DNA of 55,686 bases from Candidatus Woesearchaeota archaeon (GTDB taxonomy: Archaea > Nanobdellota > Nanobdellia > Woesearchaeales > ARS49). Of this stretch, positions 2,469 to 7,788 are shown one piece after another. Positions within the stretch are counted from its first letter, which is position 1, and every line of letters begins with the position of its first letter. The position numbers and the translations under genes were made by a program. Under the pieces are notes generated by a model. It was given only the letters and a program-made list of their open reading frames with translations. It was not told where the DNA came from and did not search any database. The stretch lies in NCBI GenBank assembly GCA_016203445.1, contig JACQMS010000006.1, forward strand, positions 1 through 55,686, written 5' to 3'.

Positions 2469-2515
2469 GACTTGGCGAAATATTGAAAGTATATAAAACT
2501 TTTGACAGAATATTA

Positions 2516-2690
2516 CTCAGAAATGTGAAGCTCCGCGCTTTAGCGCTTGAGCGTAGCATTTATGAGTTCAAATTTTGCACTTTTAGTGCGAGGAGAGTAA
2601 AGCCGCGGACTTTAGTCCGGGGATACTTGCGATGTTCTCATCGCAAGCTCCGAGTTGTATAGAAGGTTGGCTCCGAGCGTGCGAAATTTG
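2516..2690. repeat. Nested hairpin cluster with IS200/IS605-end-like or REP-like stem-loops
   Basis: CAAATTTTGCAC(2569-2580)/GTGCGAAATTTG(2679-2690) encloses CCGCGGACTTTAGTCCGGGG and CTTGCGATG-TTCT-CATCGCAAG; also GCGCTTTAGCGC. Confidence 0.6.
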
Positions 2691-2780
2691 TTACTGAAAA
2701 ATACACTGCCGGCTATACTATCAAATATTACTGTTCTGAAAGATAAATACTTAAATAGTTTCAGCATAAAATTTTTTATC

Positions 2781-3620
2781 ATGTCTGAATACAAGGGGAA
2801 AATAATAGTTATTGAAGGTATCGACGGCTCGGGAAAAACAACTCAGACAAACATGTTGATTGCAAGGCTTAAAGGTCAAGGCTTAAATGTTAAAACTCAA
2901 GATTTTCCAAGACATGGAGATCCGGCATTTCATTGCGGGGACAAATATTTGACGGGGGTTTACGGTCGTGACGTAAAATCATTAGGATTTCTTGGACCAT
3001 CAATTTTATACTCTGTTGATAGATTCGACTTCGCGCATACACAAATGATTCCTGAATTGAGTAGAGGAACATTATGGGTTCTCAACAGGTTCATTCAATC
3101 AAATTATGGACATCAAGGAGGAAAGATAGATGATTATTCCGCCAGAGAAGAATTTTTCAGAAAAATCGATGAGATAGAATTTGATTGGTTTGGAATACCA
3201 AGATGGGATTTCACAGTATTTCTAAAAGTGCCGCCAGTGTTAAGCAGACAATTTGTGCTAAGAAAAAAAGAATCTGAGAGAAGGCAAGGAGAAAGATCAT
3301 ATCTTGGTGAAGAAAAACAAGATTTACACGAGCAAGACTTGATGCACCTGATTAATGCATCCAGAGCTTATGATCACGCGGGAAATTTTTATGGTGGAGA
3401 CAAATGGGTATTCGTTGACTGTCTAGCACCAGAACTTGAAGAAGAAGTAAAAATTTTAACTGAAAGAGTTATTCGTGAAAGAATGAGTGCTCTAAAAGTT
3501 CAAGAATTGCTACAAAGAGATCTGGAAGCGTACTTGTTAAGTCCTGAACAAGTGCACGAAAGAGTGTTCAAAAAAGTATCAGAATTTTTAAAAAGGAATG
3601 ATACATTTTCTTTTTTCTAA
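2781..3620 (+). CDS. tmk: Thymidylate kinase
   Basis: IIVIEGIDGSGKTTQ P-loop, DFPR, DRF, LNRF...SNYGHQGGK, QDLHE; ATG 2781. Confidence 0.88.
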   Translation: MSEYKGKIIVIEGIDGSGKTTQTNMLIARLKGQGLNVKTQDFPRHGDPAFHCGDKYLTGVYGRDVKSLGFLGPSILYSVDRFDFAHTQMIPELSRGTLWVLNRFIQSNYGHQGGKIDDYSAREEFFRKIDEIEFDWFGIPRWDFTVFLKVPPVLSRQFVLRKKESERRQGERSYLGEEKQDLHEQDLMHLINASRAYDHAGNFYGGDKWVFVDCLAPELEEEVKILTERVIRERMSALKVQELLQRDLEAYLLSPEQVHERVFKKVSEFLKRNDTFSFF

Positions 3621-3646
3621 AACGCAGTCCCATCACCGCCAAAAAA
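3605..3646 (+). repeat. 42-bp direct repeat, copy 1
   Basis: ATTTTCTTTTTTCTAAAACGCAGTCCCATCACCGCCAAAAAA; 39/42 identical to 5618-5659. Confidence 0.9.
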
Positions 3647-3724
3647 AACATTTGATTCAATATATTTACCCACATCAAGTGAAAACATTTATAAAGTCTG
3701 TTTGCACTCTTGCTATGGGGGCTT

Positions 3725-4879
3725 ATGATTCATCATTGCGATTATGGACGGGGATTGCTTACTGCACTGCAAGGCAGTGTCATGAAAGCCGGCTCTCCAC
3801 TCTATCAACGAGGAGCATTAGACGGATTCCACGCAAAAAAAACTGATAGGTTTACAAAACACTTCTGCAGATGCGTTGGATGTGAGAAGAGATCTTCATC
3901 TTGTGATGTGCTTTACCAACCAGAATCTGAATTAAACCTTTCAGAATATAATGGAATTGAAGGAAAATTTATAGGATCACTTCTTGGAACTGCAATAGGT
4001 GATGCTTTAGGATTCCCATTTGAAACAATAAAAAATGAAGATTTACGAGCACAACGAGTATACATTAATGGACTGATAGGAACACTCTTCCACCCGAGAG
4101 GAATTTATTCTGACGATACTGAACTCACACTTCTTCTTGCAAACATGCTAAAAGAATCAAAAGAGTTCTCTTCCGATGCATTCCGCCAAGAAATCATGAA
4201 ATGGGCAAGCACGAATTCAAGAACTCCTGGAAGCGGAATGATCAAGTATGTACAATCATTGCAATCAGGAATTTCTTTTGATACATCTCAAAATATTGGC
4301 AATGGTATCTGCTCAAGAATTTCTCCGATTGCACTACGATATTACAACGATGAACAGTCTCTGATACAAACAATAGACTGCTATGCAAGATTGACGCATA
4401 ATAATTCTACCGCTGTCGCGGCGGCGCTTATCGTATCACAATGTATATCGTGGAGCGTTACGAGAACACCTGAAACGTTTGATCGTGATGCTCTCTGTGA
4501 ACATATGCTTTCTCTTTCGAAAAATCTTGATGATTCAGTGTATAAAAAATTGGATTGCATCATTCATTCACTACAAAAACCGGTTCGTCAAGTGATAGAA
4601 ACAATAGGAACAAGACCAGTAGTTACTGAAAGCGTTATAATAAGCATATACTCGTTCCTCCGAGAGTATGATGATGCCAGAAGAGCATTGCTACTCGCAG
4701 TAAATACAGAAGGTGACAGGGACACTGTAGGAGCGATCACCGGTTCAATGATAGGAGCATTACATGGAGTAAAAGGAATTCCCTCCATGTGGATTAAAAA
4801 GATCGAAAACCCATCAGGAATCATACAAGCAGGAAAAGAATTATTCCAATCATATTATGCAGACTCGACAAGAATCTGA
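3725..4879 (+). CDS. ADP-ribosylglycohydrolase (DraG/ARH family) with Cys/His-rich N-terminal extension
   Basis: GTAIGDALG, YSDDTE, GNG and GDRDTVGAITG Mg-binding motifs; ATG 3725. Confidence 0.9.
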   Translation: MIHHCDYGRGLLTALQGSVMKAGSPLYQRGALDGFHAKKTDRFTKHFCRCVGCEKRSSSCDVLYQPESELNLSEYNGIEGKFIGSLLGTAIGDALGFPFETIKNEDLRAQRVYINGLIGTLFHPRGIYSDDTELTLLLANMLKESKEFSSDAFRQEIMKWASTNSRTPGSGMIKYVQSLQSGISFDTSQNIGNGICSRISPIALRYYNDEQSLIQTIDCYARLTHNNSTAVAAALIVSQCISWSVTRTPETFDRDALCEHMLSLSKNLDDSVYKKLDCIIHSLQKPVRQVIETIGTRPVVTESVIISIYSFLREYDDARRALLLAVNTEGDRDTVGAITGSMIGALHGVKGIPSMWIKKIENPSGIIQAGKELFQSYYADSTRI

Positions 4880-5586
4880 GATTCATCGATAATTCCATCA
4901 TTTGTTGTAATAGTGTACGCACCTTCTTCAGCTTCTTTTGTGTAGTGTTGAAGAATAAAATTATTTGGATAGCACAGCGTGACAATCCATCCTTTTCTTT
5001 TCTCCGACTCATCCATAATACGCTCGATTTCTTCTTTGGAGATAGAATGAAACTCTCCGTGCTCTTCTGCTTCCGCCCACACTTCATCAGGCCCTTTTGA
5101 GAAAACAAATTCTCCGCTTCCAGGCGATAATCGTTCTAATTCATCAAACATATAATCTTCACCTGCCGCAATTTCTGCATGAATTCTTGCCTCATTCCTG
5201 TTCATAGTAAACCAGAACGGCTCATGTTTTTTCCCAGAACCCGCAACAAGCACGTGTTGTATTCTTAAAAGATTCAGTTTACGGTCTCCCATTCCATGAT
5301 ACAAAGAAAAATTGTTCTCTTTTAATTCATCTATTCTCATCATAATCTGTAAACATTTCTTTTTTACGAACGTACTATTATTCTTTTTCTCAAGAATTGT
5401 TTCTATTTCTGCAATGAAAAAATCAATGATATTGATAATATTCTCTTTTCCTACAAGCCGCCAATGAATTTTTCCTTTTAACTCTTCCTGACAAGACACC
5501 AACCATGCATGAACATTATCTGAAGAATTTTCTGCTATTATCGCACTCAATTTGGTGCGAAGCAAAAGAATCAATTCTTCATTCAT
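4855..5586 (-). CDS. Hypothetical protein, putative ADP-ribosyltransferase fold
   Basis: ATG 5586 with TTTATAAA ~25 bp upstream; SLYHG...FWFT...EARIHA...EEGAY resembles ART strand motifs; 3' end overlaps the ARH gene by 25 bp. Confidence 0.5.
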   Translation of the reverse strand: MNEELILLLRTKLSAIIAENSSDNVHAWLVSCQEELKGKIHWRLVGKENIINIIDFFIAEIETILEKKNNSTFVKKKCLQIMMRIDELKENNFSLYHGMGDRKLNLLRIQHVLVAGSGKKHEPFWFTMNRNEARIHAEIAAGEDYMFDELERLSPGSGEFVFSKGPDEVWAEAEEHGEFHSISKEEIERIMDESEKRKGWIVTLCYPNNFILQHYTKEAEEGAYTITTNDGIIDESQILVESA

Positions 5587-5617
5587 ACAAACTGTCCACA
5601 TAACTGAGCGTTTATAA

Positions 5618-5659
5618 ATTTTCTTTTTTCTCAAACGCCGCCCCATCACCGCCAAAAAA
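5618..5659 (+). repeat. 42-bp direct repeat, copy 2
   Basis: ATTTTCTTTTTTCTCAAACGCCGCCCCATCACCGCCAAAAAA. Confidence 0.9.
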
Positions 5660-5671
5660 TAAGCTCACCAT

Positions 5672-6454
5672 TTAACATATTCTTTTAACATATTCTGGCG
5701 AGGGCTTGCCATTCATATACATTATTTCTCTAGTTCCAACACTTCGCGCAGTACACTTTTCAGAACCATCACTGTCCAAAGACCAAGAAACAGCTAGTGC
5801 ACTGTTCTCCCAAAGACCAAAGCTGTAAAAATCAGAATTACCAACACAAGCCTTTTTCTTAAGAAGTTCATGCATTCTCTTCAAAAATTCTTCTGAAGGC
5901 AATTCTTTGCCGTCATCAACAAACAAACCGGCATAATCCTCAAAATGGGCAAAGAACGATGCATTCTCAATAACATTAAAAGCGCGAAAAACTCTTGAAG
6001 ATTCAGGTCTGACATTGTGGGGGTTAGACCAGCAGTTGCCAAGAATTAGGGCTCCTGCAGAGTTGCCGACAATGACAACACCAGAATCATACGCGCGTCT
6101 TAATTGTTCACGGAACCATTCAACAGGACCGAGAACCTTAAACGCATAAGGATTGCCGCCGCTCATATAAATAATATCAAAATCTTCTAGAGAAAAATTT
6201 TTAAAATTTTTTGGATCTGTAACGAATCTTGCATGACTAACATCACAACCTAGACGAGAACCGTAAGTGGCATTAAACTCGACCTCATCCTTTTGTGCAT
6301 CACCATTAGCAGTTCCAATGTGCAAAGCTCTAACCTTTCCAGAAGAACGAGCTCTAGCAAGATCCATAACGTAATCATCAATAGTAGGTGTACATCCAAT
6401 AGATAGCTGACCGCCGATGAGAACACAGTTTTTAGGCGCAGGGGGTGAAATCAT
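5672..6454 (-). CDS. Peptidase S51 family (dipeptidase E/cyanophycinase-like)
   Basis: IGTA, DIIYMSGGN, GNSAGA nucleophile elbow, FAHF. Confidence 0.85.
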   Translation of the reverse strand: MISPPAPKNCVLIGGQLSIGCTPTIDDYVMDLARARSSGKVRALHIGTANGDAQKDEVEFNATYGSRLGCDVSHARFVTDPKNFKNFSLEDFDIIYMSGGNPYAFKVLGPVEWFREQLRRAYDSGVVIVGNSAGALILGNCWSNPHNVRPESSRVFRAFNVIENASFFAHFEDYAGLFVDDGKELPSEEFLKRMHELLKKKACVGNSDFYSFGLWENSALAVSWSLDSDGSEKCTARSVGTREIMYMNGKPSPEYVKRIC

Positions 6455-6609
6455 AGTCGTGAACCCCGTTAATGCCTATTTAAAAACTAATTGACACATT
6501 TAATGAAAAAATTGACGAAATGACATACAAGAAAGTTTTATAAAAAGCTCCAAACCCCTCATCATAACACAGATGAATACAAAAAGATGATACTAAAAAA
6601 AAGAATTAT

Positions 6610-6721
6610 GCCTCTGTAGCATAGTAGCTATTGCGCCACCTTGGTATGTTTCGCGCACGGAATGTTCGGAGCCGAAGCGGCAGAAAGGTGGAGGTCGCGG
6701 GCGCACATCCCGCCAGAGGCT
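6610..6721 (+). tRNA. tRNA-Thr(GGT) with ~39-nt intron at 37/38 (6647-6685)
   Basis: Acceptor GCCTCTG/CAGAGGC; removing the intron restores CCACC-TTGGTAA-GGTGG; T-stem GCGGG/CCCGC with atypical loop. Confidence 0.8.
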
Positions 6722-6749
6722 GTAAGACTTTTGGATAACTGAGTATTGT

Positions 6750-7373
6750 TTATTCCAATATGTAATATTCTTTCATTGAATAGTTTACGCCAAGCTTTCC
6801 AAGTACAGTCATCGTTTCTTGCTGATATTCTTTTGGTATGATAAAAACATTTGAACTTATCTTTTTTCCTTTTAGATTGTGGAGTATTCCCTCTCCCCTA
6901 TAATATTTTTCTTTTCTTCCAAAGAATTTTCTCGTGAATTTGAGGTATTGTTCTTTTTTTGATGGTAGTTCTATGATGAAGAGTGTTTCTTTTTTTCCTT
7001 TTATAATATCTGTTTGTCTTGAATATAGGAGTATTCCTTCAGAACTAATGCTCGTGTTTAGTTCCCATACACGTACGTTTCCAGTGTTGATTGATATTGG
7101 GTGTGTGAATCGTAAAATTTTCCATTTCTCATATTCTTTCGATTCGTAGAATCTTGATATTGCAGATTTTCCTTCAGTTTCCATTTTTTTTTCATCTTTT
7201 TCCTCGCAATCAATAAAAATGTCTATATCACTTTCTTGTGTGAGCTCGTCTCGTGCTGCAGATCCGTAGAGGTATATTGCTCGTATCTTTTCTGCATTTT
7301 TTTCGTTGATGAACAGGAAGCTAAGTGCTTGTTGCACGTACGCAATAGCTTTATAACGTTTCAATGTCTTCAC
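6750..7373 (-). CDS. Minimal nucleotidyltransferase (MNT) with C-terminal extension
   Basis: YLYGSAARDELTQESDIDIF (GS-x-DxD) motif. Confidence 0.88.
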   Translation of the reverse strand: MKTLKRYKAIAYVQQALSFLFINEKNAEKIRAIYLYGSAARDELTQESDIDIFIDCEEKDEKKMETEGKSAISRFYESKEYEKWKILRFTHPISINTGNVRVWELNTSISSEGILLYSRQTDIIKGKKETLFIIELPSKKEQYLKFTRKFFGRKEKYYRGEGILHNLKGKKISSNVFIIPKEYQQETMTVLGKLGVNYSMKEYYILE

Positions 7374-7788
7374 CTTTTTTTGCTAATTCTTCTTTTATGA
7401 TTGCGTGAAGTTTTTGAAATGCTTCTAGTATAGTCTGAATACTTGTGAGTATTGGTTTTCCATAGATTAGTTTATTTCTATTGTTCTCAATTATGTAGAG
7501 AAGCTTGAATATTTTTTCTTTGTGAGGAAATTCTGCGGTTATCTTTCTTTCGGCTACTGGAATTATTTTTTGTCCTATTTGAGGCTCTTTAAACCATTCA
7601 TGTTTAATCATTGTTCCTCCTTGTATTTTTTCGAGTTTGTGTAGGTAGAGTTCAAGTAGTGATATTGAACATGCTGATGTGTGAAGTCCGAGTGTTGCGG
7701 GACGTTGTTCGATTCCTATTGTAATAGCATCGCGTAACTCTTGAATATGCTCTTTTATATGTTCTTTATGTATGCTTATCGATGTCAT
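7351..7788 (-). CDS. HEPN-like protein paired with MNT
   Basis: Helical 145-aa protein overlapping the MNT gene; IENNRNKLIYG at the Rx4-6H position. Confidence 0.55.
   Translation of the reverse strand: MTSISIHKEHIKEHIQELRDAITIGIEQRPATLGLHTSACSISLLELYLHKLEKIQGGTMIKHEWFKEPQIGQKIIPVAERKITAEFPHKEKIFKLLYIIENNRNKLIYGKPILTSIQTILEAFQKLHAIIKEELAKKGEDIETL

Follow-up and report, generated by a model that had tools for sequence, protein, structure and literature searches.

Does a 2-kb segment bracketed by direct repeats in a small archaeal genome encode a reversible ADP-ribosylation system, and did it enter that genome as a unit? We examined this question for a stretch of 55,686 nucleotides from a Candidatus Woesearchaeota archaeon (contig JACQMS010000006.1 of assembly GCA_016203445.1), which we call the window. 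A preliminary description, made from the letters of the window, had proposed that a gene for an ADP-ribosylglycohydrolase (here ARH) and a convergent gene (here X), thought to encode an ADP-ribosyltransferase (ART), form an acquired or excisable toxin–antitoxin (TA), defence or host-manipulation module. The reading that we tentatively favour, with a probability a little short of even, is that the segment is an accessory conflict module, in which a putative writer of ADP-ribose is joined by its eraser or antidote and which would have been inserted by Campbell-type recombination.

The window is contig C28 of its own genome, G000, and two genomes of the same genus, G001 and G002, served for comparison. 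The assembly of G000 comprises 815,648 bases in 37 contigs with a completeness estimate of 92%, in agreement with an archaeon of small genome. Four DNA runs of one study contain the stretch, no RNA run being listed, and a 3854-nt contig of run X1 covers 2800-6636 with zero differences from the window. Among the proteins used for comparison, P0004 is the database copy of ARH, P0016 is a relative of ARH, and P0003 and P0015 are relatives of X.

Repeats, boundaries and the natural empty site

The cassette and its flanks are laid out as follows.

2781..3620, forward strand: tmk, thymidylate-kinase-like gene forming the left flank (PF02223, E 2.7e-12; NF005923, E 1.3e-21, below its cut-off)
3601-3646: direct repeat copy 1, starting 1 nt past the end of homology with G001 (3599)
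3688..3695, forward strand: TTTATAAA box before ARH, ending 29 nt upstream of the ATG
3725..4879, forward strand: ARH, DraG-like ADP-ribosylglycohydrolase of 384 aa (PF03747, E 2e-52)
4855..4879: overlap of the two 3' ends, encoding YYADSTRI and stop on the forward strand and QILVESA and stop on the reverse strand
4855..5586, reverse strand: gene X, orphan, 243 aa
5611..5618, reverse strand: TTTATAAA box before X, 24 nt before the ATG (5586) and reaching into repeat copy 2 from its inner side
5614-5659: direct repeat copy 2, aligned three-way with copy 1 and the G002 copy
5672..6454, reverse strand: S51-family peptidase gene forming the right flank (PF03575, E 9.2e-12)

A repeat search of positions 2500-7000 returned a single outstanding direct repeat of 46 nt, the two copies of which (3601-3646 and 5614-5659) are 42/46 (91%) identical with a start-to-start spacing of 2013. 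The best 46-mer pair in 20 mononucleotide shuffles of the same region reached at most 30 matches, against the 42 observed. A 42-bp repeat with 39/42 identities had been reported originally; this was recovered for 3605-3646 in a scan of the genome and is the inner part of the 46-nt repeat. Between the copies lie, as described, two convergent genes with overlapping 3' ends, which share 25 nt (4855-4879). The C-termini encoded across this overlap are identical in the respective relatives (P0016 for ARH, P0003 and P0015 for X), a pattern that fits a conserved overlap without proving it.

The natural counterpart of this arrangement is found in G001, whose contig C64 carries a tmk orthologue (91% identical) and stops about 45 nt into the S51 gene. 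Homology of this contig with the window extends to 3599 and resumes at 5685 by local alignment, or at about 5681 by reading of the codons, and direct reading places the tmk and S51 stop codons of G001 4 nt apart. The resulting indel measures about 2,080 nt in the window versus 16 in G001; on the left it begins with the first base of repeat copy 1, and on the right it ends about 21 nt past copy 2. Thus, the clean convergent tmk-to-S51 junction that had been envisaged as the product of a deletion occurs naturally in a relative. Repeat copy 1 contains the final 7 codons and the stop of tmk (DTFSFF and stop), so that the tmk product ends in RNIL in G001 versus RNDTFSFF in the window. The S51 peptidase ends in PEYVKR in G001 versus PEYVKRIC in the window. 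A 12-nt sequence, TTAACATATTCT, is doubled at the 3' end of the S51 gene (5672-5683 and 5686-5697, 2 nt apart) and single in G001, and this doubling yields the two extra residues (IC) of the window protein. Gene X was not found in 60/60 relatives searched, including G001 and G002, and the window type of ARH was not found in either of these two genomes, G001 having a paralogue elsewhere that is 24-28% identical.

Of the claim that the cassette is acquired or excisable, the presence/absence indel is borne out; no excision junction appeared in the contigs of the four runs. Neither an empty-site joint across 3600-5660 nor a circle junction was present in these contigs, which drop rare variants, and the negative therefore says nothing on excision.

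The preliminary description was also right that the cassette lacks an integrase: 3601-5659 has no further recombinase-capable open reading frame (ORF) and neither gene matches a recombinase family. Thus, of the features of an integrase-borne element, direct repeats and an empty site in a relative were found and a recombinase gene was not. We rejected an integron gene cassette because the bounding repeats are direct and no attC-type inverted repeat stands at the cassette ends: of the 15 inverted pairs detected in 2500-7000, none connects one cassette end with the other or fits entirely inside a repeat copy. The only pair touching a copy (I10) has one arm at 5613-5626 and the other within ARH, at 3960-3973.

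The motif TTTATAAA occurs 11 times in the window versus 4.5 expected, and 7 of these 11 matches, the ARH and X boxes included, precede an ORF start by 21-29 nt (ORFs of 100 aa or more). It is likely, judging by this placement, to be an archaeal TATA box for short-leader or leaderless mRNA. With one box at each outer end of the cassette, each gene would have its own promoter and transcription would converge on the shared 3' ends. Scans for sigma-70 promoters and intrinsic terminators gave chance-level counts, the models not being applicable to an archaeon.

We then asked whether the genome holds further inserts of this kind, scanning it for direct repeats that are 30 nt or longer and have a spacing of 300-8000 nt. 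At least four cassette-like inserts of 1.35-2.0 kb with direct repeats of 46-83 nt were found in G000, none of which has a recombinase gene:

C17, 14378-14446 and 16022-16090: repeat 69/69 identical; wHTH-nucleotidyltransferase and HEPN genes; a RadB/Rad51-like gene has its 3' end in copy 2
C30, 3630-3712 and 4980-5062: repeat 82/83 identical; HEPN and wHTH-nucleotidyltransferase genes; overlaps a small ORF at its 5' end
C33, 35346-35397 and 36838-36889: repeat 50/52 identical; AAA_14-DUF4143 ATPase gene; in the last codons of an RNase P p30 (Rpp30) gene
C28, 3601-3646 and 5614-5659: repeat 42/46 identical; ARH and X; at the tmk tail

The three sister cassettes span 1.35-1.65 kb. The C17 site is empty in both G001 and G002, with G001 retaining a single copy of the 69-nt sequence. 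The ARH-X cassette fits the pattern of its sisters in having one or two accessory genes, its own promoter, repeats at a gene end and no recombinase, and in being missing from close relatives. It differs in how the repeat relates to the adjoining gene: in C17 and C33 one repeat copy extends over the coding 3' end of the adjoining housekeeping gene, whereas only 20 of the 46 repeat nt are coding in the ARH-X cassette, in a tmk tail that is missing from G001, and the G001 site has no copy. A further difference is a third copy of the repeat, located at the end of another gene in G002. Because the sister cassettes carry nucleotidyltransferase (NTase)-HEPN pairs or a DUF4143 ATPase, a conflict or TA reading becomes more plausible, and to this extent the earlier proposal of a TA or defence module is strengthened, whereas the toxin-antidote role of ARH and X themselves is something we infer.

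The 46-nt repeat has a G+C-rich core flanked by T-runs on both strands, and the reverse complements of both window copies read as short frames with FFGGDG(T/A)AF. When up to 3 mismatches were allowed, the 27-nt core had three occurrences in the 61 group genomes (two in G000, one in G002), and a wider search, in which each of 185,579 species was represented by one genome, returned nothing but the G002 contig. Four exact matches of the core in JGI metagenomes were set aside as chance, as they lie in unrelated G+C-rich DNA with no similarity past the pattern. On the G002 contig (C137) a gene with 324 codons or more, convergent with its neighbour, ends in the repeat: its final residues, LDLFFGGDGTAFGKK and stop, are encoded by the core in reverse complement. 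This third copy may be the solo scar of a similar cassette or may reflect a core that recurs at convergent gene ends of the genus. The gene that ends in the repeat has no Pfam family and no IMG/VR relative. It belongs to a genus-specific family of about 460 aa without a Pfam match (locus L008, G002:C137, 1498-2472, reverse strand; G000:C35:377-1753, reverse strand; and G001:C5, locus L031, 1021-2415). Members of the family have a C-terminal Q-x-x-L-F-G-like motif; the G000 and G001 paralogues end around LFGSVDEDL and the G002 member ends in the repeat core instead, as QLDLFFGGDGTAFGKK and stop.

The hydrolase and gene X

The identification of one gene as a clear DraG/ARH hydrolase is secure, PF03747 scoring 179.1 bits against a cut-off of 26.2 over profile positions 1-286 of 287. 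We accept the start at 3725 because P0004 begins at that ATG and P0016 keeps the extension that follows. The catalytic domain covers residues ~80-360, in which D130, D131, T132, D331 and D333 are invariant in 5/5 aligned ARH sequences and E100 is present in the 4/4 that cover this position; these residues belong to the ARH metal-site motifs GDALG..E, SDDT and GDxDT, which are thus intact. By sequence, the protein is an active-looking ADP-ribosylhydrolase of the DraG/ARH family. It is not a DraG equivalog, since TIGR02662 gives 100.1 bits (E 1.2e-28), below the cut-off of 337, nor a Tri1 orthologue, since NF041672 matches the ARH domain (profile positions 69-358 of 361, E 2.6e-20) with 72.5 bits, far below the cut-off of 490. 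The N-terminal extension of 85 aa contains a C-x-C-x2-C-x7-C pattern, and P0016 (384 aa, 82% identity) keeps it nearly unchanged, with KKTDRFTKHFCRCVGCEKR identical. A search for short fragments of the ARH relative found none.

Gene X encodes an N-terminal four-helix bundle (residues 1-90) followed by a C-terminal domain of ~150 aa. Its relatives P0003 and P0015, from one other lineage, are both 70% identical over 243 residues without gaps; in the single lineage known to carry relatives, X is thus kept at full length with its frame open. The codon usage of X is typical, lying at the 24th percentile of distance from the genome mean for 351 ORFs. No further homologues were found in 5.8 billion clustered proteins or 1.84 billion representatives, nor in JGI metagenomes, GTDB genomes or IMG/VR. 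Ten X-like matches in 400 genomes of the phylum (E 0.005-0.09, 10.9-15.4 bits; one in G036) were judged to be chance. The best full-length phage match by tblastn (E 9) falls on an unrelated ORF of 260 aa, in which visual inspection revealed no ART signature, and the best plasmid match (E 0.6) is a hypothetical protein without an ART family.

Is X an ADP-ribosyltransferase? The motifs SLYHG, FWFT..EARIHA and EEGAY, which had suggested ART strands 1, 2 and 5, are present and invariant in the two known relatives. A comparison of residues 88-243 with the ESM Atlas returned PF12120 Arr-ms for 26 of the 30 nearest named clusters, the others being Tox-ART-HYD1 and PARP. The Arr-ms score was 0.92 with 120/256 features shared, where matches within one family usually share at least 170 and a third of shuffled proteins also receive ten concordant top matches. 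In the structural comparison, the 10 rows shown included one PARP, three Tox-ART-HYD1 and one PT-HINT/TreTu_C cluster, with template modelling (TM) scores of 0.40-0.48 by query and at most 0.70 by row; the sequence-feature and structure searches of the Atlas count as one source.

Candidate ART motifs in X are H97 in FSLYHGMG, W125/F126 in FWFT (followed by a helix), D167 in GPD, and EEG at 220-222. The candidate triad of H97, W125/F126 and D167 (alternatives E221 and E235) is invariant in the three sequences and was placed by spacing only. For Arr, a triad H19-Y49-D84 is described, together with an HGT motif where strand 1 ends (PMC6092378, PMC8120803), and the spacing H97-F126-D167 (+29, +41) compares with +30 and +35 in that triad. 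Arr is also described there as having no obvious sequence similarity to other ARTs (PMC6092378, PMC8120803), and a failure of profiles on X is therefore not unexpected.

A number of results weigh against this identification. Pfam gave 0 families (whole protein at E <=0.1, residues 91-243 at E <=10), NCBIfam and PADLOC gave 0 matches, PDB searches gave unrelated weak matches by phmmer and none by profile, and PHROGs gave only matches of unknown function at E >=0.015. All ESM Atlas rows fall under the bar of the tool, with TM by query below 0.5 and with the shared features and the shuffled-protein rate noted above. The aromatic position is W/F rather than Y, and the SN(Y/F) and DPN motifs of Arr are missing. 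The AlphaFold check that had been suggested yielded no usable model of the C-terminal half: from a 2-sequence alignment, AlphaFold2 modelled residues 1-90 as a confident four-helix bundle of generic arrangement (predicted local distance difference test, pLDDT, ~70-85), residues 111-243 had a pLDDT below 50 and residues 88-243 alone one of 35.5. The ESM Atlas has its own model of X with a pLDDT of 0.68 and a predicted TM score of 0.56.

Because it is the ESM Atlas alone that points towards an ART, with every row below the bar, the ART identity of X is a lead and not a result, and a writer is plausible and unproven. The suggestion of an ART thus gains neighbours in ART families and lacks a profile or sequence match and a model of the C-terminal half. 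On balance we lean slightly towards X being an ART, the C-terminal ~150 residues of which would most likely adopt a fold of the H-Y-(D/E) type that binds NAD+ and resembles Arr, PARP and Tox-ART-HYD1. In G000 (92% complete) no recognised Arr, Tpt1, PARP or SIR2 was found, in family searches that also miss the X locus; X is therefore the only candidate writer for ARH in the genome. The sole Tox-ART-HYD1 match in G000 was noise (E 0.017, 15 bits, internal stop).

Weighing the explanations

Under our favoured reading, X would use NAD+ to ADP-ribosylate a target belonging to the cell or to an invader, with H97, F126 (or W125) and D167 as its candidate catalytic triad, and ARH would strip this mark as an eraser or antidote. 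By analogy with the action of Tri1 on Tre1, the N-terminal extension of ARH might additionally restrain X, and the two genes would be opposed to one another by their convergent, overlapping transcripts. A circular intermediate would have integrated through the repeated sequence in Campbell-type fashion, with enzymes supplied in trans, a route that fits the presence of at least four inserts bracketed by direct repeats and devoid of recombinase genes. Integration of circular DNA through a short stretch common to both partners is expected to produce direct repeats of just this kind.

Reversible ADP-ribosylation modules such as DraT/DraG, Tre1/Tri1 and DarT/DarG are known from bacteria. The Tre1/Tri1 pair of the Serratia type VI secretion system (T6SS) resembles ARH and X in placing a hydrolase of the DraG/ARH fold beside an ART, here a putative one, and in the N-terminal extension that precedes the catalytic domain. 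A review describes the protection by Tri1 as twofold, its N-terminal extension occluding the toxin and its DraG-like domain reversing the modification (PMC8120803). Differences are that Tre1 belongs to the R-S-E ARTs and X, should it be an ART, would be of the H-Y-(D/E) type, and that the present pair is convergent rather than co-directional, has no secretion-system context and resides in an archaeon. On this evidence Tre1/Tri1 is the closest analogy and not a family to which the pair belongs. DraT/DraG shares the logic of writer and eraser and an eraser from the ARH family, and the same review has DraT and DraG co-expressed from one operon (PMC8120803); the pair considered here is convergent, has no nitrogenase context, and X has no search-detectable similarity to DraT. 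Arr, a rifamycin ART of the H-Y-D type (~16 kDa), resembles residues 88-243 of X in domain size, in the HG motif past the first strand and in the aromatic/Asp spacing, whereas PF12120 and the NCBIfam models miss X and X has an additional N-terminal helical bundle. Arr is not known to pair with an ARH. DarT/DarG is like the proposed module in combining an ART toxin with an antitoxin that removes the modification on a mobile two-gene unit, and differs in that DarG is a macrodomain protein rather than an ARH, in being organized as operons, and in that PADLOC models miss both window proteins.

It is quite possible, without being probable, that ARH is the sole ADP-ribose enzyme of the cassette, stripping foreign marks (viral, host or competitor) or salvaging NAD+/ADP-ribose, with X an unrelated orphan. 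The profile failures on X agree with this, and so does the distribution of ARH genes in the phylum, which occur in 41/301 genomes (a count that includes G011), with Arr in 0/401 and Tpt1 in 0/301. Around 29 other ARH loci (L039-L068 except L061), the 58 immediate neighbours (two of them from G011) often function in NAD metabolism (NadA 2, NAPRTase/NAMPT family 2, NAD kinase 3, NMNAT-like 3, NUDIX 2, isochorismatase 1). No ART was present in the 25 of 36 neighbour families listed, and no X-like ORF among 384 ORFs near those loci (best E 0.33). This survey indicates that ARHs of the phylum commonly work without an adjacent ART, and suggests, from gene content, a housekeeping role in ADP-ribose or NAD metabolism for most of them. 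ARH and X are, furthermore, convergent with separate promoter boxes rather than arranged as a co-directional TA pair. Relatives of X are recorded on 6 contigs (the longest 10,923 and 6,973 nt) and those of ARH on 2 (4,348 and 1,989 nt), with no size in common, which leans against strict linkage, and the flanking genes gave no common size either; these records are incomplete, as P0001 is recorded on one contig and the 3,854-nt Logan contig of run X1 also carries the gene. All of these observations count against a writer-eraser pair. On the other side, the window ARH is a distant branch, 24-33% identical to the other ARHs found, and its setting has no NAD-metabolism neighbour. Both genes lie inside one 2-kb indel with overlapping ends; the C-termini from the shared 25 nt are identical in relatives; and the relatives of both genes were obtained from one collection source and have diverged to a similar degree (82% and 70% identity). 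The concentration of ESM Atlas neighbours of X in ART families, and a conserved N-terminal extension of the kind that Tri1 uses on its toxin, also speak for pairing. A predicted complex of X and ARH scored 0.00 in two runs and bears neither for nor against binding.

A decidedly improbable alternative is that the segment is immobile, the 46-nt sequence being a bidirectional transcription-end or spacer element, the G001 difference a one-off insertion or deletion, and ARH and X ordinary lineage-specific genes. The T-runs on both strands and the location of all three copies, including that in G002:C137, at convergent gene ends are what such an element would show. Several features of the cassette tell likewise against its insertion as a mobile unit. 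The empty site of G001 carries no repeat copy, where a relative with a single copy had been hoped for, and the picture of one native and one acquired copy is therefore unconfirmed; that one copy is the native tmk/S51 spacer could not be demonstrated, since the 16-20-nt spacer of G001 threads onto the repeat only with several gaps. The cassette has no recombinase gene, no junction was present in the contigs of the four runs, and the repeat copies have diverged at 4/46 positions. In addition, neither cassette gene looks foreign, both matching the rest of the genome in G+C content and codon usage, which indicates DNA that is not recently foreign or that derives from close kin. Set against an immobile segment are the rarity of the repeat, its three copies in 61 group genomes and none elsewhere in 185,579 species being too few for a general terminator, and the indel boundaries, the left at repeat copy 1 and the right ~21 nt past copy 2. 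Three more cassettes of the same footprint in the genome, one with empty sites in both same-genus genomes, point in the same direction. Finally, that X is not a real protein-coding gene is barely credible: there is no homologue outside one lineage in the 1.84 billion representatives and no RNA run is listed, against which stand a 243-codon frame kept gap-free at 70% identity in two sequences (one recorded on 5 contigs), a promoter box at the usual distance, typical codon usage and a confidently folded helical bundle in residues 1-90.

A more far-reaching version of the accessory conflict module, which we regard as unlikely when taken as a whole, would have X found an unrecognised archaeal Arr-like (H-Y-D) ART family, paired with a Tri1-like restraining ARH in a convergent, antisense-coupled switch that travels in recombinase-less gene-end cassettes of DPANN genomes. 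The literature searched yielded no description of an ART/ARH pair or of repeat-bracketed cassettes in Woesearchaeota. If X were an ART, its family would be invisible to current profiles and adjacency to ARH would show a way to more members; ART/ARH pairing would then occur in a reduced-genome archaeon, in convergent orientation and on a recombinase-less, repeat-bracketed cassette. Gene-end cassettes of this kind would, if the reading is true, represent a route for the spread of defence and toxin modules that we did not find described in the literature searched. Independently of X, at least four cassettes are present, with empty sites for both of those checked, so that the exchange of defence and toxin genes among tiny symbiotic archaea is testable with reads and relatives.

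Neighbouring features

Beyond the right flank, a tRNA gene of 112 nt lies at 6610-6721 on the forward strand, between the S51 peptidase gene and an NTase gene (Rfam 44.5 bits, E 4.7e-07); it presumably contains an intron and was missed by ARAGORN. Contig depth is ~5-fold higher there in all four runs. The NTase gene (Polbeta, PF18765, E 3e-12) overlaps a 145-aa partner without a firm family at 6750-7788 on the reverse strand. This pair resembles an NTase/HEPN-type pair adjoining the cassette and has no bracketing repeat of at least 30 nt.

Upstream of tmk, a hairpin-rich non-coding stretch at 2509-2700 has no Rfam match at E <=5 except a chance snoRNA match. Contig depth over this stretch is 3-4-fold higher, and a variant form in which 61 nt are replaced by 16 is present in all four runs.

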